From the IMG/VR virus record IMGVR_UViG_2737471822_000004, positions 1-21,415 of that record: a stretch of DNA of 21,415 nt, one strand, 5' to 3'. Source of the stretch: a virus. Taxonomy: Duplodnaviria > Heunggongvirae > Uroviricota > Caudoviricetes. Made by a program: the position numbers and the translations under genes. Positions 1,611 to 18,099 of the stretch are shown in pieces. Under the pieces are notes generated by a model. That model did not search any database, was not told the DNA's origin, and worked only from the letters and a program-made list of their open reading frames with translations. Position 1 is the stretch's first letter. Each line of letters begins with the position of its first letter.

Positions 1611-2004
1611 ATTTTTTAATGAAAAAAATCATCTAAAAATTAGTTCAAAGCAATACGTTCAAACTGATATTGATGCTTAGGAGCTAATCGGTACGTATTG
1701 ATGGTACAACAGAAAAGAACAATAGAAAGCTTGGGGGCTGACGTTGCTACTGGCGCACATACCCATGTCGTACTAAAAGAGTTCATTTGATTTTATAACT
1801 ATATCAGCCCGTTATTTTTATGTTGATGCGAACAGCCCCGCACGCCTGCCCGCTTCGCTTAACAGACTGGTTTTCATGCACCTCATAAATCGTCTCAGAA
1901 GCCACCACACGAGGGCTTTCTCGTCAAAAATGGTGCATAAGGTTCATGCGTTTTCATGCGCTATAGACATGCACTCATGCGCTCTCAGGCCAGCCAGGGA
2001 AAAG

Positions 2005-2034
2005 GTGTTAAAAATCCCGGTACTCGACCGGGAT
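2005..2034 (-). terminator. Rho-independent terminator after the sid-psu-delta operon
   Basis: Perfect 8-bp stem ATCCCGGT / ACCGGGAT (2014-2021 and 2027-2034) with a 5-nt loop. On the minus strand it is followed by UUUUAACACC. Lies about 20 nt downstream of the delta stop. Confidence 0.7.
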
Positions 2035-2054
2035 TACGTGGGCGTTTTTTCTAA

Positions 2055-2336
2055 TCAGACAGGAATCTGCTGACGGCTTGACAGTTTTGACGCGGAGCCA
2101 TAGCGATTGAGCGTTTGCTGTTGTTTTACCGGGGGTTGTGATTTGTCTGGTTCCTGTTCATTGCGCCGGGGTTTCATGATTATCTTATCCACACTCTCCA
2201 GTGCCGTAAATGTGCAGGAACATTCCAGATTCTGGCACTGATACCACGAGCGTTTAACTGACGGAGCTTCATAGGCTGCTGTTCTGGCGTGTGCAACTGT
2301 ACCGCATTCCGGACATTTAAGTGCCATTAAAATCAC
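2055..2336 (-). CDS. delta: Ogr/Delta-family zinc-finger late transcription activator (93 aa)
   Basis: Translation carries the CPECG...HART...YQCQN.ECS zinc-finger pattern typical of P2 Ogr / P4 Delta. Start overlaps the psu stop by 4 nt. Confidence 0.85.
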   Translation of the reverse strand: MILMALKCPECGTVAHARTAAYEAPSVKRSWYQCQNLECSCTFTALESVDKIIMKPRRNEQEPDKSQPPVKQQQTLNRYGSASKLSSRQQIPV

Positions 2337-2884
2337 TCCTGTATATCGTTAATGTCATTCAGGCGTTGCTGAAAATGCAGATGTTGTGCCGGGGTGTAAG
2401 AGTCCTGGCAATCACGAATCATCCCGGGGTCAGGTATCAAACCGGATTCATCCAGGATCTCACGATAATCCCCGGCAATTTCAGGCGGTGTTATTGCCAG
2501 CTGGCGAACCAGAGCACTGCGTAATATACGGGACGCAACGTCAACCCCTCCGCGTCCCTTCAGGAACGGAGCCAGTGCAGATGTCAGGGCTGCCCCATTC
2601 GCCTGCATAAAATTGCTGAGAGCTGCTTCTGTGCAGGCCTCCATCAGTAAATGCTGCGAGTAAATGCATTCGCGCGCAGCACAGTTAATTTGCCATTTCA
2701 GCACATCCAGACGTTCCCGCAGTAATTCGAGCTGTCGGGCATAATCTGCTGGTTTTTCTGTGGCAGCAAGGAGAGATGCTATCTGTTGTTCAACGGCTTT
2801 TCGGCTCTCACTATGTCCGGCCCACAGAATACGGGCATTCCGAAAACTGGTAAGTGCCTGGTCAGGCGTGCCTCGGGCCGTCAT
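2333..2884 (-). CDS. psu: Psu-like polarity suppression / capsid decoration protein (183 aa)
   Basis: Size, all-helical composition and recalled P4 Psu motifs (LKWQIN.AA, FMQ..G.AL..ALAP, YTPAQ). Sits inside the late operon, coupled to sid and delta by 4-nt overlaps. Confidence 0.7.
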   Translation of the reverse strand: MTARGTPDQALTSFRNARILWAGHSESRKAVEQQIASLLAATEKPADYARQLELLRERLDVLKWQINCAARECIYSQHLLMEACTEAALSNFMQANGAALTSALAPFLKGRGGVDVASRILRSALVRQLAITPPEIAGDYREILDESGLIPDPGMIRDCQDSYTPAQHLHFQQRLNDINDIQE

Positions 2885-3624
2885 ACTGCTTTCTCCTTCT
2901 CAGCAAGTTCCTGACGAACCTTAATTTTATGCATAGCTGCCGGAGAGAGTTGATTACTGAAATCCAGACGCGCCGCATAATCCGGGGCAATTCCCGCCAG
3001 TTTAAACACCGGGTCCTGTTCAGGCATCGCATCGTTAGCCAGAGCCGGTCTGGTGATATGTTTATGAATAAAGTCTTTCAGCACTGTGTCCGGGTCATTA
3101 ACTGAATTCACCACACCCACAACGGCACTGGCTTCCCGGCCCATTGTGGATTTAAGCAGGCTCAGCGTCTGAATAAGCGCTTTTCCATGCGACTGCATAA
3201 AATCTTCCCAGATTTGTTTTGCACGAATATCCACAAGAATATTATGCGCGTGGATATACTTTCCGGCTAATTCTGCAGCTTTCTGCGGCAAAAGTGCATT
3301 TTCGCTTTCCTGAGCCGCCAGCAGCTCATCAAAATCCTCAAGCGTTTCTCGTCCCAGCGCAATTTCCGTGCGCAGTTTTTTCATTTCCTTTGAGACCACG
3401 CCCTGACTTTCACGAAACAGCGTGCGCCACTCCTCATTCAGTGTGTTCGTCGTGGCTTCCATTTCAGCGCGACGCTGGCGGATTGTCGCAATATTATCCG
3501 CTGCCGCTTTCTGCTGACGACGTGCTTCAAGCCATGCGTTTCTGGCTGTGTTCATGGTTTCCAGTGCCCGCTGCGTTACAGCCGGAAAAGTGGAAAGGTT
3601 GTTATTCACTGCGGTGTTGTTCAT
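2881..3624 (-). CDS. sid: Sid-like external scaffold / capsid size determination protein (247 aa)
   Basis: First gene of the late operon, immediately downstream of tandem TGT-N12-ACA dyads. Size close to P4 Sid, helical Ala/Glu-rich sequence. AGGAG 6 nt upstream of ATG. Confidence 0.65.
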   Translation of the reverse strand: MNNTAVNNNLSTFPAVTQRALETMNTARNAWLEARRQQKAAADNIATIRQRRAEMEATTNTLNEEWRTLFRESQGVVSKEMKKLRTEIALGRETLEDFDELLAAQESENALLPQKAAELAGKYIHAHNILVDIRAKQIWEDFMQSHGKALIQTLSLLKSTMGREASAVVGVVNSVNDPDTVLKDFIHKHITRPALANDAMPEQDPVFKLAGIAPDYAARLDFSNQLSPAAMHKIKVRQELAEKEKAV

Positions 3625-3658
3625 GACTTCTCCTGTCGGGTTGGTTCGTTACGTCAAT

Positions 3659-3714
3659 TGTGTCGTGGCTGACACAAGCACACTATCGGTGATCAGTGTG
3701 TGGTGGCTGGCACA
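3659..3714 (-). promoter_or_regulatory. Late promoter region with two TGT-N12-ACA dyads (Ogr/Delta-type activator binding sites)
   Basis: TGTgtcgtggctgacACA at 3659-3676 and TGTgtggtggctggcACA at 3697-3714, centres 38 bp apart, about 45 and 80 nt upstream of the sid ATG. Confidence 0.6.
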
Positions 3715-3802
3715 ACGGGCGCTTGCGGTTATTCAGACGTGGCTATGAAAGCCAGCCAGATAAAAATGCCCTCTGTTTCAGTCTGCTTTATGTCCCTGAT
3801 GC

Positions 3803-3991
3803 GGTGGAACAGGTGAAACATGTGTTACTGCTTTGTTTTATAAAGTATTTATATACACTGCACCGGTGGAACATCGCGGGTAACAAGGTGGAACAGCGGA
3901 TTGGCTGGCGTTACATCTGTTCCACCTCACTATTTCAGAAGGTGAAACAGGTTCAGCCCTTGTAAAATACGGTTGTTCCACCTGTTTCACC
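3803..3991. repeat. Iteron cluster: 8 copies of 9-mer GGTG(G/A)AACA in both orientations, candidate alpha-binding origin/crr
   Basis: Copies at 3803, 3812, 3866, 3887, 3941 (forward) and 3919, 3974, 3983 (inverted, TGTT(C/T)CACC). Outer pairs form an 18-bp inverted repeat. Located between the alpha stop and the sid promoter. Confidence 0.7.
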
Positions 3992-4025
3992 TGTTACCCT
4001 TAATAAATAAGACTCACGCAAAGCC

Positions 4026-6698
4026 TTAACCCGGCACCTCGCTGTTGAAGACATAGAGCCTGCGGGGATTCATCTCTGGCGGGCGAATGGTTGTCTGGAG
4101 TTTGCCATCAGTGGAGGGCAGCAGGTATCCACGATCTGCGCACAGACGCGCCACCTTGCGCGGGTCAAATCCCCTGCAGATTTCTTTCCAGCCGGACGGC
4201 ATGACATAGAACGTAGTGACAGCTTCCGTGCCCTGCGCGGTACTGCCTTTCTCCACCCTTCGCCAGCCCACCATATTGCCGGGGCGGTTGCGCTCGTCAT
4301 ACCAGTCTGCAAAGCGGCTGTACTGATTCGCGGTAAAGAAACTGCGAACCTGCTCCAGTGCGGCGATATCTTCCTGATTGGCGGTGTGCCCGCGATCTTT
4401 CAGCCATGCGTTCAGGCAGACGCGGGTTGCCCGCAGTGCTTCACCCTCAGGCCAGCCGGTGATACCCAGACGGGTTGCCAGTTCACCTGCCATCGCCACC
4501 AGTGCAAAGCGGTTCACAGCCCGGCCCACTTGATTGCCTGCATCTTTCGGAGTCAGGGCGGCAGCATATTCCTTCATCAGCGATTTTGCCTGTGCCGTTA
4601 GTCCGTTAAGATCAGCGGTCAGTGCTTTCAGCCACTCCCGGAACGGCGAACCGTAGTAGCAGGACGTGGCCCATTCAAGATGCTCTGCCAGAGCCTTGCC
4701 GCTGTCGAAGCCGTGCAGCTCCTCAAAAACGCCAAACTTCCCGGAATCGCTGGGGATCTGGATCATCCTGACTTCCATCCCGGCAAAAGTACGCTCACCG
4801 GCCTTTGCCGCATGTTCGGTCAGAGACAACTCGCCAGTTGAAAAGAACAACAGGCGCCACTGCTTACGGGTACGCAGCTCACCGTCCGTACCGGCACGGC
4901 CCTTGCCTTGACCGTTTGCCAGCATGTAGGCGATATTGCCTGCCTCGCGTCCGTCAACTTCCCGGATCTCATCAAGCATCATGGCGGCATCGTTGCGGCG
5001 GCTGGCGCATCCCTCCAGCGCGTTGCCGGTGGCCCGCCATGTCTGCCAGTAGTCAGGCCCGCCGCAGACGGAGGTTGCTGCTTTCATGGTGGTGGTCTTA
5101 CCGTCTGTCGATTCCCCTTTGAGGTGGTAGCCGCCGCCGTCCATACCAACCAGCCGTAACAGTGGTGCAGCAAAGGCCAGGCTGACAGCAAATGCCACGC
5201 GGGAGTTGCCGGTACAGTAGCGGGATACATGCTCCCGCCATTCCTCTGTTGTGCCCGACACGCGGAAATCACGCCCCTGCACGGAAGTGGTCTGGAGAAT
5301 GACACCCTCTGCACCTTCACCGCTGACCTCATCCTGCAGGACGTAAACCTGACCATGCCAGCCAGTACGACTGACGCAGGTCACGCGGCGTTCCGGTTTA
5401 CACAGTGAGATATATTCCATCAGGCGTGCGCGTGCCTCACCGGTGGTGCTGATATAAGACAGCCCGTTAACCAGCAGTACCCGGCGCAGTTCCTCACCAC
5501 TGCCGCTCAGCATTTCCATCGGCATCGCCCAGCGGCGACACTCACCCCACGTATCTTCCCATTCCAGCAGTCGTCCGAAGTTACCGCCATCGGCATCGCA
5601 GGTGATTGCCGTCACGCGCAGCGGGCTGCATATTTTGACGTTCTGGATCTCCGTCTCACCGTTGCGCTGTACCTGCTTTTCATACCAGAGATATTCCTGG
5701 GTAAGACGGAACCCGTGCGGCAGTTGCGTGCGGCTTTCCCCGCACAGTACCAGACCGTTGCGAAAGGCTTCACGGGCACGGGTAATACCGTGCTCCCGAT
5801 GAAAGTCATTCCAGTCAGCCTTAATCTCTCCTGGTGGCAGCGTCATCCAGCCGCCAACAGCTTTTGCCGCCCGTTCAGCAAAGGCTCTGCCGGGATTCTC
5901 ACCCCCGTCCTGAAAATCGTTATCACCGGCGATGATAATTTTTACCTCAGGCCAGCGTGCCCGCAGCGACTGCGCCACATTGGGCAGGTTGCCCGCAGAT
6001 ATGGCAGCCACTACGCATCCGGCAGTGAGCTGGCTTACCGTCAGCGCCGTAGCGTAACCTTCGGTAATCACCACCTGTATCGGTGGTTCAGACGGTAACG
6101 GGCTGAGCGACACAAACGCGCCTTTCATCGTGCTGCCGGGCAGTATGCTTTTTTCACCCGTCGGGGCGATAAGCTGTGCACCGGTCACGGCTCCGGTGTT
6201 GGTCGTGAGTGGTAACAGCAGGGAACCGGCAGGAAAATCCTTACCGCTGATATGCTGTACGCTTCCGGTCAGAGAGGCCGGGTATCCGGCGAACCCTTTT
6301 CCTGTCAGATAGGCGCTTTCTCCCGTGTGGCTCTCTTTCATCAGCGCCGCCACGGTAAGACCCATGTCGCGTTTAGGGGCTTTTTGTCTGGCAGGCTTAA
6401 CAGGCAGTTCCTGCATATCCGGCACATTAAGCACCTGCGCCACCTCCTGCGCAGCCTTTCTGACGCTGTAACCGGTTACGAGCTTAACCAGATCCAGACC
6501 GTCACCATTGCCACACTGGCTGCAGATCCACGTCCCGCGCCCGTCAAGGTCATCAAGGCGAAAACGATCCTTGCCCCCACATTTCGGGCAGGGACCGTGC
6601 CTGCCGTTTTCAGGTACATCAATACGCAGCATCTGCAGAATAACGGGCCATTTCCCCCGTGCGGCGGCTGAAACCTGCGTAACCGTCTGTATTGTCAT
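4026..6698 (-). CDS. alpha: Alpha-type primase-helicase (890 aa)
   Basis: N-terminal zinc-binding CPKCGG...CSQCG, TOPRIM-like EGYATAL / AGDND acidic motifs, C-terminal Walker A GESTDGKTT. Start overlaps the upstream ORF stop (ATGA). Confidence 0.9.
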   Translation of the reverse strand: MTIQTVTQVSAAARGKWPVILQMLRIDVPENGRHGPCPKCGGKDRFRLDDLDGRGTWICSQCGNGDGLDLVKLVTGYSVRKAAQEVAQVLNVPDMQELPVKPARQKAPKRDMGLTVAALMKESHTGESAYLTGKGFAGYPASLTGSVQHISGKDFPAGSLLLPLTTNTGAVTGAQLIAPTGEKSILPGSTMKGAFVSLSPLPSEPPIQVVITEGYATALTVSQLTAGCVVAAISAGNLPNVAQSLRARWPEVKIIIAGDNDFQDGGENPGRAFAERAAKAVGGWMTLPPGEIKADWNDFHREHGITRAREAFRNGLVLCGESRTQLPHGFRLTQEYLWYEKQVQRNGETEIQNVKICSPLRVTAITCDADGGNFGRLLEWEDTWGECRRWAMPMEMLSGSGEELRRVLLVNGLSYISTTGEARARLMEYISLCKPERRVTCVSRTGWHGQVYVLQDEVSGEGAEGVILQTTSVQGRDFRVSGTTEEWREHVSRYCTGNSRVAFAVSLAFAAPLLRLVGMDGGGYHLKGESTDGKTTTMKAATSVCGGPDYWQTWRATGNALEGCASRRNDAAMMLDEIREVDGREAGNIAYMLANGQGKGRAGTDGELRTRKQWRLLFFSTGELSLTEHAAKAGERTFAGMEVRMIQIPSDSGKFGVFEELHGFDSGKALAEHLEWATSCYYGSPFREWLKALTADLNGLTAQAKSLMKEYAAALTPKDAGNQVGRAVNRFALVAMAGELATRLGITGWPEGEALRATRVCLNAWLKDRGHTANQEDIAALEQVRSFFTANQYSRFADWYDERNRPGNMVGWRRVEKGSTAQGTEAVTTFYVMPSGWKEICRGFDPRKVARLCADRGYLLPSTDGKLQTTIRPPEMNPRRLYVFNSEVPG

Positions 6699-8279: not shown

Positions 8280-8495
8280 TTACACTACTTCCTCCAATCC
8301 TGCTGATTGAGCTTTAACCCACTGCCTAATTTCTTGTGCATCGTAAACAGATACCCGTTTTGAAATGCGTATAGATTTGGGAAATTCAGGATTGTTCTTT
8401 TCCCAGCGCCAGAGAGTAACCGTACTTATTTGCAAAAAGTCAGCAGTAGCTCGTGGGCGGGCATGTCCAGTGATAGGATAAGTTTTTAATGTCAT
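8280..8495 (-). CDS. alpA: AlpA-family HTH regulator (71 aa)
   Basis: FLQISTVTLWRWEKNNPEFPKSIRISKRVSVYDAQEIRQWV matches the AlpA/Xis-type winged-helix pattern. Typical position between the integrase and the primase operon. Confidence 0.8.
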   Translation of the reverse strand: MTLKTYPITGHARPRATADFLQISTVTLWRWEKNNPEFPKSIRISKRVSVYDAQEIRQWVKAQSAGLEEVV

Positions 8496-8531: not shown

Positions 8532-8773
8532 ATACTATGGGGATATCAAAATGCTGTGAAGGTAGTGTAATCAACTCTACCTGTAGATTGTTTCAGTCTA
8601 CCCCTTTTGTTTTAATCCCGCATGATTAACCGCTAATCGTAATTTTCTTAAGATTTCTTGTTCATTAGTGATAAATATTGGAGGTAGCTCTCCTAAATGT
8701 TTAATTATGGCGTTAGTCCACTTTTCAGGACTTATCTCTTTTCTTTCACCACGACATTCGCTTGGGTATTTTG

Positions 8774-9481
8774 CTAATATATATATATGGCTGCATTTAA
8801 TAACCCCTCCCTATTTTTTGCATGATGCTCAGCAGTGTTATTTAATCGCTTGGGGATTTTAGGTTCAGATGAAATTCTTTTCGTAAGTAAACTTGGCATA
8901 GGAATTCCAGTTTTTACTGATTTCCATATTAACTCTAAATCTCTTCGCATGATAAGAAGATCTTCAAATGGAATCTCAATGACCTTATTTCCTTCATATG
9001 AGGCCGTTGCCATCAAAACATTATCTCGTATTTTTACCGGTTTAAGCCTGAATTCATAATCTGGATCTATAGCTAATCCATTTTTTATGTCACTTATCAT
9101 ATCATCGGCGTACCAAATACCACAGGCAAATCCTATAATTTGAAGCCCATTTTCAAAATGTTCAAAGGAATCATCTTTAAGGTCATACCATATTGTTGAA
9201 AATTCCATCTCTAGTGATTGATTAGTTAATACGGGATGAATTAAGTCAATTTCCATTTTCTGATTTTTATTGAGGAAATTAACATTAAATCTAACTGCAA
9301 GTCCATCCGCCTTGAATGCGATATTAAAAGCGCCTATTTCGTATAGATGTAATAAATCATCAATCTCGCATTCTAATAGTCTTGAAGCGCGTTCAAATGA
9401 ACAATATTCTAATGGTGGTATTTTTTTGTCAATCCATAGATTTCCTAAGAATATAGTTTCATTCTCTGTTGAATGCTGCAT
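8774..9481 (-). CDS. Hypothetical protein (235 aa), AT-rich cargo gene between integrase and alpA
   Basis: Long ORF with GAGG 7 nt upstream of ATG, 30 nt downstream of the integrase stop. Lower GC than neighbours. No motif recognised. Confidence 0.6.
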   Translation of the reverse strand: MQHSTENETIFLGNLWIDKKIPPLEYCSFERASRLLECEIDDLLHLYEIGAFNIAFKADGLAVRFNVNFLNKNQKMEIDLIHPVLTNQSLEMEFSTIWYDLKDDSFEHFENGLQIIGFACGIWYADDMISDIKNGLAIDPDYEFRLKPVKIRDNVLMATASYEGNKVIEIPFEDLLIMRRDLELIWKSVKTGIPMPSLLTKRISSEPKIPKRLNNTAEHHAKNREGLLNAAIYIY

Positions 9482-9511
9482 TATGACCTCTGTTTTAAAT
9501 TATAAGAGTAT

Positions 9512-10846
9512 TTAATTGATAATGTTAATACCTGATAAGTCATAAGGAGCATGGAATTCGTCCTTATTTAGTTCCAGATAATTAGACCACCATTGCATCA
9601 TTCTGCGGCGTTCCTGCATGTGCTGCGCAAGATGCACATATGCTGCCCGCACTTCGTTTCTTTCTTGGTGACTCATCTGCCGTTCAACTGCATCGCGTGA
9701 CCAGAGTCCTGATTCGGTCAGTGCAGAGCAGGCCATCGCCCTGAACCCATGCAAGCAAACATCAGTTTGAGTGTCGTAACCCATCGTTCGCAGTGCTTTA
9801 TTAACTGTGTTTTCGCTCATCGGTTTATATGGGTTGCTGTCACCGGGAAAAACCAGCAGATATTCACCACTGATTTTCCTTATATCCTCCAGTACCCCGA
9901 TAGCCTGACTAGATAGCGGGACATAATGAGCAGCCCCCATCTTTGCACCCCGATCTGAGAATTTAACCCCTGCGATCTCTTCACGTTGTCCTGGTATCGT
10001 CCATAGCCCATTTTCAATGTCGATCTCCTCCCATCTGGCATGTCGTAGTTCGCTGGATCGCACAAAAGTGTGCAGGGAAAAGAGAACTGCTAGGCGAGTC
10101 AATGGTCTTCCCGTGTAACTTCTCGTTTTCGCTAACAGTTCAGGTAAACGTTCGAGAGGTAGTGCGGGGCGATGTCGTACTTTGGGGGCCGTAATTGCAC
10201 CTTTTAGATCGTGGGCAGGGTTGTAATCGACAATTCCACGTTGCACGGCATAACGGAAGATGCTCGTCATAGTGGTTTTTACACGGCTCGTTGTGGCACC
10301 AATTCCTTTCTCAGTCATCTCAACCAGCATCGGCATCAAGTCACGGGTTTTGAGCGTATCGATAGGCTTTGAACCGATGGCAGGAAAGAGGTGGTTTTCC
10401 ATTTCTCGGAGAATTTTTTTACGGGTGATCTCTTTCCACTCAGGATGCCCCATCGTTCCACTATGCCACTCTCTGGCAACACTCTCGAACGTGGGGGAAA
10501 TTGGGTCTTCCTTTTTGGGTTTCTTTGCTTCGCGAGGATCACGACCATCGGCTAGTAGTTGCCTGGCTTCATCACGCCGTTTCCGCGCTGTTGCAAGTGA
10601 GACATCTGGGTAGACCCCTAATGCTAATGTCACTTGTTTTCCATCAAAACGATAATTCATACGCCAGTATTTTCCACCAGTCTTTCGTACCAGTAGATAC
10701 AAACTCCCTCCATCGGTAAGTTTGTAATCATTGGTCTTCGGCTTGGCGTTTTCTATCTGTTTGGGGGAAAGCACATTAATGGCCATATCTGTACTCATTT
10801 TGGTAAATTGATGGTATCTGCATATCGAACTGGGGAATACCATCAC
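9512..10846 (-). CDS. Tyrosine recombinase, P4-family integrase (int1); probable true start at 10786 or 10798
   Basis: N-terminal arm-binding domain (KLTDGGSLYLLVRKTGGKYWRMNYRF...VTLALGVYPDVSLATARKRRDEAR) and C-terminal catalytic region (HGFRA...RAAYVH...RRRMMQWW). The canonical N-terminus begins at MAINVLSPK. Confidence 0.9.
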   Translation of the reverse strand: MMVFPSSICRYHQFTKMSTDMAINVLSPKQIENAKPKTNDYKLTDGGSLYLLVRKTGGKYWRMNYRFDGKQVTLALGVYPDVSLATARKRRDEARQLLADGRDPREAKKPKKEDPISPTFESVAREWHSGTMGHPEWKEITRKKILREMENHLFPAIGSKPIDTLKTRDLMPMLVEMTEKGIGATTSRVKTTMTSIFRYAVQRGIVDYNPAHDLKGAITAPKVRHRPALPLERLPELLAKTRSYTGRPLTRLAVLFSLHTFVRSSELRHARWEEIDIENGLWTIPGQREEIAGVKFSDRGAKMGAAHYVPLSSQAIGVLEDIRKISGEYLLVFPGDSNPYKPMSENTVNKALRTMGYDTQTDVCLHGFRAMACSALTESGLWSRDAVERQMSHQERNEVRAAYVHLAQHMQERRRMMQWWSNYLELNKDEFHAPYDLSGINIIN

Positions 10847-16392: not shown

Positions 16393-18099
16393 ATGAATTC
16401 ATCGTTTGTCGGGTCCATCTCCATCTCTTGGCCTATTGCCATTCTTGCGTCAGTGTCATCAGAGGCGAAGCATAAAACAGCCCCCGTCACCATCCCAGGA
16501 GACATCATTATCGATGCTTCTACTGGAGAATTTACCTTCAATGGCATTGATTATATTTTCCATCCGCTTGGCGCAAAATCAGTAGAGATTATCGGCGGTA
16601 AGTTCACCGCAAATGCATACCACACCCAGCGTCCTCAGGTAATTTTCAATGATTACCCTGATGGGCTGGAGAATTTACCAACGCGCGTGGTGATAAAAGA
16701 TATGCAATGCTTTAACTGCGGTGTTGGCTACATCATGGTTAACTGCCAGGACCCAACAAGCATCCACGTTACGGTTGATAACAACTACTGTAAGACTGAT
16801 GACAACACTGACCAGTATATCTCTGATGCGGGTATGTCAGGTGGGCAGGGTGAGGTATACCCATATCTGATGATTCTTGGTAATACGACAGAATCCGTCG
16901 ATATTGGAACGCCTCGCAAGTCAATGTTCCATGTGACCAATAATACCTTTGATGTTTTTATGCAGAGTGGTCCTAATGCAGATTTGGGTAAAGTTGGTGG
17001 TACTACGATAGGCGGCAATGTTAACGGCAATCTTTTCTGCAACAGGAATACGGAATGTGCATGCGAATTTGACACTTTTACTGGTGGTCTTGAAGTATCT
17101 TTAACATCAAACCGTTTTGTTAACACTGCCATTAAAATGATGTCAATGCAATTTGATAGCAGCACTCGCGTCGGATTAGGTGGTAGATCTTCAATATCGA
17201 ATAACGTATTTCATTTTGAAGAAAATCCGTTAAATGACTTTGCAATATTCTTACGGACATCACTTGTTAGCATATCTAATAATGTTTTTTATTACAAAGG
17301 TGCGAGCATTCCATCAGATCAGAGGATATTTAACTTTATAGCATCACAGGCGCTCAACAATAGTAACAATGGTTTCAACGGAACATGGTGCGCAGGTATT
17401 AGTATCACCGGTAACACAATGCAAATGGTGTTAGACCCTGCCGTAAACACGTCTCTAAGATTGCAATGTATTAACCCGACTGATATGTCAGGAGCGGTTA
17501 TATCGGGTAATTTTATGGCGGGCGGAGTAGGAATGGTGCTTAACGCCAGACCAGAAAGAAACAGAAACGTATGGACAGGTAACTTCATTACGTCAGGGTT
17601 ATTTACGGCAGAAGATATCTGGCGAATGAACTCAGCTTTTGTAGGTTCAGGGAACTACATCGGCAATGGTTATGATAATACGGTTAATGGCATAGCAATG
17701 TTGAGCAAGACTATACCCGCGGTATCAGATGGTTCAAAGATAAGAATTACTCTTGACCAGCAGATATTAACCGGGGCTGCATCTGACCGCTCACTTTACC
17801 TTCTCCACATAAAAGTAACCGGTGGGGTAAAAAACAACTACGCTACATATATCATGTCTTCTGGTGCGCATGACGCAACAGCAAGAGCCGACGCAACTGA
17901 CCTTAAACCCCCTATTGACCAGCGTTTAAACCCAGGAGATACTTCCATTGCAAACCTGCAAAGTTGCTTTAAAGCCGGATACAATGGAAGTGGGTATATT
18001 GTGCTTGAGGCCCTTTCAACATTCAGCGCGGCAAATCAGCCACCAACAAAAATTGAATATGCAATAGTACCATTATCAACAAACTTCCCAACGCTGTAA
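16393..18099 (+). CDS. Parallel beta-helix protein, probable phage tailspike / receptor-binding depolymerase (568 aa)
   Basis: Repetitive Gly/Asn/Thr-rich sequence with recurring ISNNVF / ITGN / ISGNF motifs typical of right-handed beta-helix tailspikes. Adjacent to an O-antigen acyltransferase. No recognisable P22-type head-binding N-terminus. Confidence 0.55.
   Translation: MNSSFVGSISISWPIAILASVSSEAKHKTAPVTIPGDIIIDASTGEFTFNGIDYIFHPLGAKSVEIIGGKFTANAYHTQRPQVIFNDYPDGLENLPTRVVIKDMQCFNCGVGYIMVNCQDPTSIHVTVDNNYCKTDDNTDQYISDAGMSGGQGEVYPYLMILGNTTESVDIGTPRKSMFHVTNNTFDVFMQSGPNADLGKVGGTTIGGNVNGNLFCNRNTECACEFDTFTGGLEVSLTSNRFVNTAIKMMSMQFDSSTRVGLGGRSSISNNVFHFEENPLNDFAIFLRTSLVSISNNVFYYKGASIPSDQRIFNFIASQALNNSNNGFNGTWCAGISITGNTMQMVLDPAVNTSLRLQCINPTDMSGAVISGNFMAGGVGMVLNARPERNRNVWTGNFITSGLFTAEDIWRMNSAFVGSGNYIGNGYDNTVNGIAMLSKTIPAVSDGSKIRITLDQQILTGAASDRSLYLLHIKVTGGVKNNYATYIMSSGAHDATARADATDLKPPIDQRLNPGDTSIANLQSCFKAGYNGSGYIVLEALSTFSAANQPPTKIEYAIVPLSTNFPTL

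Follow-up and report, generated by a model that had tools for sequence, protein, structure and literature searches.

A predicted Psid-type late promoter with two tandem activator dyads in a divergent P4-like satellite prophage

On the minus strand of a 21,415-nt viral DNA (positions 1 to 21,415 of IMG/VR record IMGVR_UViG_2737471822_000004, the whole of which is referred to here as the window), positions 3650-3714 very probably constitute the late promoter of a divergent P4-like satellite prophage, equivalent to Psid of P4 and driving sid-psu-delta. The original prediction was of an Ogr/Delta-activated late promoter upstream of sid that carries two tandem TGT-N12-ACA dyads 38 bp apart. Both dyads are present, and the assignment as a late promoter is supported by the content of the operon, by the geometry shared with P4 and by conservation of the triplets. 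The promoter would be a Psid orthologue of a known type and changes no concept; what is added here is a two-site layout that is invariant across the family, together with a third conserved element upstream.

Results

Promoter and operon

The two 18-mers are perfect matches to TGT-N12-ACA, with starts 38 bp apart, and the distal dyad is identical to the proximal one at 16 of 18 positions. They occupy the interval 35-90 bp upstream of the sid ATG (3624, minus strand), and relative to this codon the distal dyad starts at -90 and the proximal dyad at -52. The features of the promoter, the operon and the rest of the element are collected in Table 1.

Table 1. Features of the promoter region, the sid-psu-delta operon and the surrounding element, in window coordinates
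Feature	Position	Strand	Description
Terminator after delta	2010..2035	-	intrinsic; AATCCCGG-tcgagta-CCGGGATT then TTT; read from sequence
delta	2055..2336	-	93 aa; single Ogr/Delta zinc finger; PF04606, E 7.5e-16 (above cut-off)
psu	2333..2884	-	183 aa; Pfam PF07455 Psu, E 9e-45
sid-like gene	2881..3624	-	247 aa; first gene of operon; Pfam Psu family, E 2e-9
Shine-Dalgarno for sid	3630..3634	-	AGGAG; GG invariant in A3
Predicted transcription start	3649..3651	-	A at 3650, 7 nt past CACAAT
-10-like hexamer	3657..3662	-	CACAAT; 4/6 matches; part of invariant CACAATT in A3
Proximal dyad	3659..3676	-	+ strand TGTGTCGTGGCTGACACA; sid direction TGTGTCAGCCACGACACA
-35/-10 spacer	3679-3663	-	17 bp; contains left two-thirds of proximal dyad
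-35-like hexamer	3680..3685	-	TAGTGT; weak, 2/6 matches to TTGACA
Distal dyad	3697..3714	-	+ strand TGTGTGGTGGCTGGCACA; sid direction TGTGCCAGCCACCACACA
Upstream element	3739..3759	-	CTGGCTGGC-TTTCAT-AGCCAC; window-clade variant of CTGGC palindrome
Iterons	3803..3991	.	at least 8, 9 bp, GGTGGAACA / GGTGAAACA, both orientations; between primase stop and promoter
Primase (alpha)	4026-6698	-	Toprim/DUF927
AlpA	8280-8495
Integrase	9512-10846

A consensus scan of 3500-4150 recognised no consensus sigma-70 promoter, which fits a promoter that depends on an activator. The proximal dyad shares 4 nt with the -10-like hexamer, and the CACAATT block to which this hexamer belongs is near-invariant, as GCACAATTGAC, across 79 regions from related loci (see below). 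In the -35-like hexamer, the T at 3685 (-35) and the G at 3683 (-33) fall in invariant columns of the alignment designated A3. From the conserved CACAAT and from positional homology with nt 9557 of P4, we infer a transcription start at ~3650, which leaves about 26 nt to the sid ATG. Counted from this start, the dyads are centred at ~-55.5 (distal) and ~-17.5 (proximal), so that the earlier estimate of roughly 55 bp between the distal dyad and the start agrees with the predicted value of 55.5 bp. Using the proximal dyad as the -55 site of a second start was considered and rejected, because that start would fall at ~3612, inside sid. An Rfam scan of the whole window at the gathering threshold returned zero matches.

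The three genes downstream are tightly packed on the minus strand, with the start of psu overlapping the stop of sid, and the operon is closed by a strong terminator (2035-2010). Its last gene, as had been proposed, encodes a zinc-finger protein, and it matches PF04606; note that the RefSeq start of delta is an ATG at position 2327. The predicted window Delta is 47% identical to P2 Ogr (finger domain) and 45% identical to the N-terminal half of P4 Delta. Ogr is required by the late promoters of P2, which have TGT-N12-ACA in common (PMC3931495), and P4 is trans-activated by Ogr; Delta is an Ogr homologue that activates the late genes of both P2 and P4 (PMC7552001, PMC8628076). A single promoter over psu-delta-sid has been described (PMC13586616). 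The left half-site TGTGTCAG is the same in the window proximal dyad, in the annotated activator site of P2 PO/PP and in the distal site of P4, which supports the prediction that the Ogr of a helper would also recognise the window promoter. Activation and autoactivation of sid-psu-delta by Ogr/Delta are predicted by homology.

Comparison with P4 and P2

The layout of the two dyads is that of P4 Psid. In P4 (NC_001609) the dyads are TGTGTCAGGGCTGGCACA at 9493-9510 and TGTCCGGTGTACGTCACA at 9531-9548, the sid ATG is at 9583, and the dyad starts are at -90 and -52, the same as in the window. Both have a spacing of 38 bp and a proximal dyad centred 43.5 bp from the sid ATG, and in each, at an equal distance from the ATG, the right half of that dyad shares bases with CACAAT. 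When the P4 start is placed by the same rule (at nt 9557), the P4 dyads come to lie at ~-55 and ~-18. Julien and Calendar in 1995 and Reiter et al. in 1998 are said to have found footprints of P4 Delta on Psid at ~-55 and ~-18, and control of Psid was reportedly described there as complex. The dyad centres counted from the predicted window start (-55.5 and -17.5) agree with these reported footprints.

Like P4 Psid, the window promoter is positioned to drive sid, psu and a gene for an activator of the Ogr family. The two elements differ in gene order (sid-psu-delta in the window, sid-delta-psu in P4), in the activator (a single-finger Delta of 93 aa in the window, a two-domain Delta of 166 aa in P4) and in the primase operon, which lies upstream in tandem in the window and is arranged divergently in P4. 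The psu-delta swap is a frequent variant found in ~20% of P4-like elements, and the gene arrangement of the window is also a described variant of the P4-like organisation (PMC8628076). Searches of a phage collection that included P4 gave no matches, either by blastn (distant mode) with positions 2000-4100 or by tblastn with the window Sid. Aligned pairwise, the window and P4 Sid proteins are 24% identical over 226 aa (E 7e-13), and homology to P4 is visible only in such pairwise protein comparison and in the geometry of the promoter.

P4 has a further promoter with this pattern, the late leftward promoter PLL (dyad at 9133-9150), which contains a single TGT-N12-ACA dyad and drives the replication/immunity operon. 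A perfect equivalent of PLL was not found in the window element. When one mismatch was allowed, a search of the window for additional activator sites, a PLL equivalent among them, turned up about as many as chance would give and nothing interpretable.

In the helper phage, the P2 late promoters drive structural and lysis genes. In the P2 record (NC_001895), the centres of the annotated activator sites are 55.5 bp (PO, PP), ~57 bp (PV) and 57.5 bp (PF) from the annotated starts, and the distal window dyad, at -55.5, is within this range of -55.5 to -57.5. PP, PO, PV and PF have one site each and none at -18, unlike the window. None of the four P2 promoters is a perfect match to the pattern: PO/PP and PF read TGT-N12-CCA and PV reads TGT-N11-ACA (imperfect sites at 3063-3080, 10243-10259 and 17561-17578 of the P2 record), and the textbook consensus is thus fitted better by the promoters of satellites than by those of the helper P2 itself. 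Since the P2 late promoters match imperfectly, a perfect TGT-N12-ACA is neither necessary for such a promoter nor by itself diagnostic of one. Note also that the operators of PpsR/CrtJ in purple photosynthetic bacteria likewise have the form TGT-N12-ACA and are often paired; the likeness is superficial, as these operators belong to an unrelated host clade and regulator, and the window contains no such regulator.

Conservation among related loci

Related loci were collected starting from Sid. A protein search returned 126 Sid homologues, and an alignment of 17 Sid homologues yielded 80 metagenomic and 57 IMG/VR loci, to which 7 genomic loci were added. The sid start was located in each of 146 loci, giving 81 distinct upstream regions of 160 bp, from Sid homologues whose identity ranges from 100% down to 24%. 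Both dyads are present in 79 of the 81, a count that should be read with the phylogenetic non-independence of the loci in mind, with the distal dyad starting at -88 to -93 and the proximal dyad at -50 to -54; 71 regions have a spacing of 38 bp and the other 8 one of 39 bp. One of the two exceptions is a sid pseudogene with a mis-set start, and the other has the proximal TGT changed to TAT.

Because the count of 79/81 selects on the pattern itself, a second alignment (A3) was made with MAFFT from 13 divergent representatives without use of the TGT-N12-ACA pattern. Mean column identity in A3 is 62%. Its invariant columns comprise the distal TGT and ACA, the proximal TGT, the CACAATT block, T-35/G-33, the GG of the Shine-Dalgarno sequence and the ATG; the others are two bases in the upstream motif. 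Within the dyads, the 12 nt between the triplets are free to vary, with 30 different 18-mers among the distal sites and 20 among the proximal ones, and complementarity at the six inner pairs is 0.07-0.55, mostly near the chance level of 25%. Because inner complementarity is near chance, the conserved feature is the two triplets at a fixed spacing, as expected of a site for a dimeric protein, and not a hairpin.

The gene next upstream of the promoter is a divergent alpA in ~68 loci and in P4, and a tandem primase in ~66 loci including the window. The dyads are unchanged whichever of the two is present, and hence travel with sid-psu-delta. The comparison shows the two-dyad layout of these predicted Psid promoters to be an invariant of the family and not a peculiarity of P4, and one that outlasts the disappearance of any detectable DNA similarity, the psu/delta swap, the change from a two-domain to a single-finger Delta and inversion of the replication module. 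Delta is a single-finger protein in all related loci (75-161 aa, mostly 90-124 aa), and among the loci compared only P4 has the 166-aa two-domain form. The -18 dyad is kept across the family although every relative examined except P4 has a single-finger Delta.

Alternative explanations

Judged by the window alone, the dyads might be two functionless TGT-N12-ACA matches that happen to fall together. The 401-bp intergenic region is rich in TGT and ACA because of its iterons, and at least two sites occurred in 772 of 20,000 (3.9%) shuffles of it. Across the window the bare pattern is at chance frequency, with 6 sites observed against 5.3 expected (104 against 107 when one mismatch is allowed), and the 4 perfect matches besides the dyads lie inside coding regions or outside the satellite element. 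Of 5000 dinucleotide-preserving shuffles of the window, 281 contained a pair 19-60 bp apart and 18 contained one 37-39 bp apart. As evidence against chance, these window-only statistics are modest. The matter was decided by comparison with P4 and the relatives, which confirms, at the level of sequence, that the pair is real: positions and spacing are identical to those of P4, and nearly all orthologous regions keep both dyads despite divergence of the bases within and around them, in loci that are far from being near-identical copies, as the mean column identity of A3 indicates. We therefore consider coincidence extremely improbable. Operators for some other regulator, such as host CRP, an AlpA/Vis-like protein or a primase/origin-binding protein, are likewise very improbable. 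The TGTG...CACA of the dyads resembles CRP half-sites (TGTGA/TCACA), and the promoter has an iteron-rich origin beside it and, in many relatives, a divergently oriented alpA as well. The CRP consensus is TGTGA-N6-TCACA, with 10 nt between TGT and ACA, whereas both window dyads have 12, and the inner bases that CRP needs vary across the relatives. The iterons are a different motif (GGTGRAACA), distinct from the dyads, which argues against a primase/origin-binding protein, and persistence of the dyads next to either upstream neighbour argues against both AlpA and the primase. In addition, the left half-site is identical to the left half of annotated activator sites of P2 and P4.

It could also be that the dyads act as nucleic-acid hairpins (a terminator, an attenuator or a cruciform) in transcripts reading through from the primase, and not as protein sites. 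In the window, the two halves of the proximal dyad can pair over 7 bp (TTGTGTC/GACACAA), and the primase is co-oriented with sid with no terminator detected between them. Across the family, by contrast, many sites pair only at TGT/ACA, in keeping with the near-chance complementarity of the inner pairs, compensatory changes that preserve pairing across clades are absent, and neither dyad is followed by a T-run. The dyads are present, moreover, where no gene reads toward sid (the loci with divergent alpA, and P4), and we regard the hairpin explanation as highly improbable. A different kind of alternative is a refinement of the late-promoter model itself, in which activation is through the distal dyad only and the proximal one, at -18, serves as an autoregulatory brake capping expression of sid-psu-delta; bound Delta at -18 would then hinder formation of the open complex. 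Placed between the -35-like and -10-like elements, and sharing bases with the second of them, the proximal dyad occupies a classic position for an operator; it is conserved as strongly as the distal dyad, and the reported footprints of P4 Delta cover both -55 and -18 of Psid. Conservation of the right half may, however, partly reflect the overlapping -10 element, and since Delta of the relatives has a single finger, the behaviour of the two-domain P4 Delta may not transfer. This refinement is a plausible one that, in our estimate, falls somewhat short of probable.

Proposed mechanism

Under the late-promoter model, the vestigial -35 element (TAGTGT) and the sub-optimal -10 element (CACAAT) would leave the promoter silent on its own. 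A zinc-finger activator, either the Ogr of a helper phage or the element's own Delta, would bind the distal dyad at ~-55 and recruit RNA polymerase in a class-I-like manner. By analogy with P2 Ogr, recruitment would proceed through the alpha subunit of the polymerase; for Ogr, a genetic interaction with rpoA is indicated by Ogr mutations that suppress rpoA109 (PMC11434276). Because delta is inside the operon, firing would be self-reinforcing once triggered, that is, the circuit would contain positive feedback.

The same protein probably also binds the proximal dyad (~-18, within the -35/-10 spacer), where its effect, to judge from the position, would be to modulate or to limit by feedback more than simply to recruit; the dyad may be a brake or a second contact. 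A broader version, in which satellites in general share a two-site logic whereby one activator turns the operon on at -55 and restrains it afterwards at -18, is speculative and we consider it rather unlikely; within it, the conserved CTGGC palindrome described below could be a third control element or an insulator. If this logic were true, a governor of the capsid-redirecting genes would have evolved as a built-in part of satellites, one that the late promoters of the helper lack.

With the predicted promoter, the control point of the helper-exploitation operon is now annotated in a P4-like satellite of E. coli. A signature for the late promoters of satellites can be written as two TGT-N12-ACA dyads separated by 20-21 nt, the second having its end covered by CACAATT. 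The promoter also offers a defined target for testing which helpers trigger a given satellite.

Region upstream of the promoter

The iteron array at 3803-3991 is likely to be the replication origin. In P4, the type-1 repeats of ori lie ~80 bp upstream of the distal dyad, and the window iterons are in the equivalent place; the P4 repeat is the 8-mer GGTGAACA, and the window iterons are one base longer. Origin, Psid and sid would thus seem to make up a single conserved module.

In other clades and in P4, a palindrome or hairpin, CCTTTyCCTGGCTnGCCAGAAnAAGG, lies a short way upstream of the distal dyad. Most related loci have this CTGGC palindrome 22-25 nt upstream of that dyad (9457-9473 in P4); in the window it is altered and lies ~21-24 bp further from the dyad. 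In some clades it is followed by a T-run and folds with -18 kcal/mol (z -3.1), which is terminator-like. A general role as a terminator was rejected, as the convincing hairpin with a T-run is found in some clades and not in P4 or the window. A scan of 3500-4150 recognised no terminator between the primase gene and sid. Because the primase gene lies in tandem upstream with no terminator detected, activator-independent read-through from the co-oriented primase into sid is possible in the window clade.

Copies of the motif in the form CCTTTTyCTGGCTnGCC occur elsewhere. The window has one at 1988-2004 (minus strand), just past the delta terminator. P4 has 4 matches against 0.09 expected, one of them at 8724-8740 (minus strand) between ORF88 and cI, where it overlaps the -35 of a putative promoter (TTGCCT-N17-TATAGT).

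The element and its surroundings

The core genes of a P4-like element (int, alpA, alpha, sid, psu and delta) are co-located in the window; a homologue of epsilon/ash was not identified in the window element. The cos 19-mer of the P2/P4/186 type had zero matches in the window at up to 4 mismatches, and zero at up to 3 mismatches in the copy of strain PD4 with its 12-kb flanks. Among the related loci other than P4, most of which were covered with only ~1.5 kb of flank, a 186-like cos was found only in one (L075). A degenerate cos candidate, GGCGTGCGGGGCTGTTCGC, is present at 1846-1828 (minus strand) downstream of delta, in the interval 1571-2054. The cos site may be of a non-P2 type or may lie outside the window, and both the helper and the cos type of the window clade may differ from those of P2; no helper prophage was found in the window.

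The sid region of strain PD4, where the element is integrated at argW, is 100% identical to that of the window. Integration of the window copy at the same argW site was ruled out, since ARAGORN found no tRNA gene in the window. Of 5426 complete E. coli genomes, 841 (~15%) contain the 2.1-kb sid region, and at least four E. coli genomes match it at 100%.

Downstream of delta are two AT-rich open reading frames on the minus strand, at 1-705 and 722-1570 (234 and 282 aa). Their products have N-terminal segments predicted to be hydrophobic, along with coiled-coil-like sequence, and Pfam and PADLOC gave nothing for either. Their position is that at which P4-like satellites carry variable anti-phage cargo (PMC13586616). 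Beyond the integrase, the segment 12341-20103 contains genes of the lambdoid-prophage kind, namely Ead/Ea22 with DUF551 and RecT, and an AT3-SGNH O-acetyltransferase gene.
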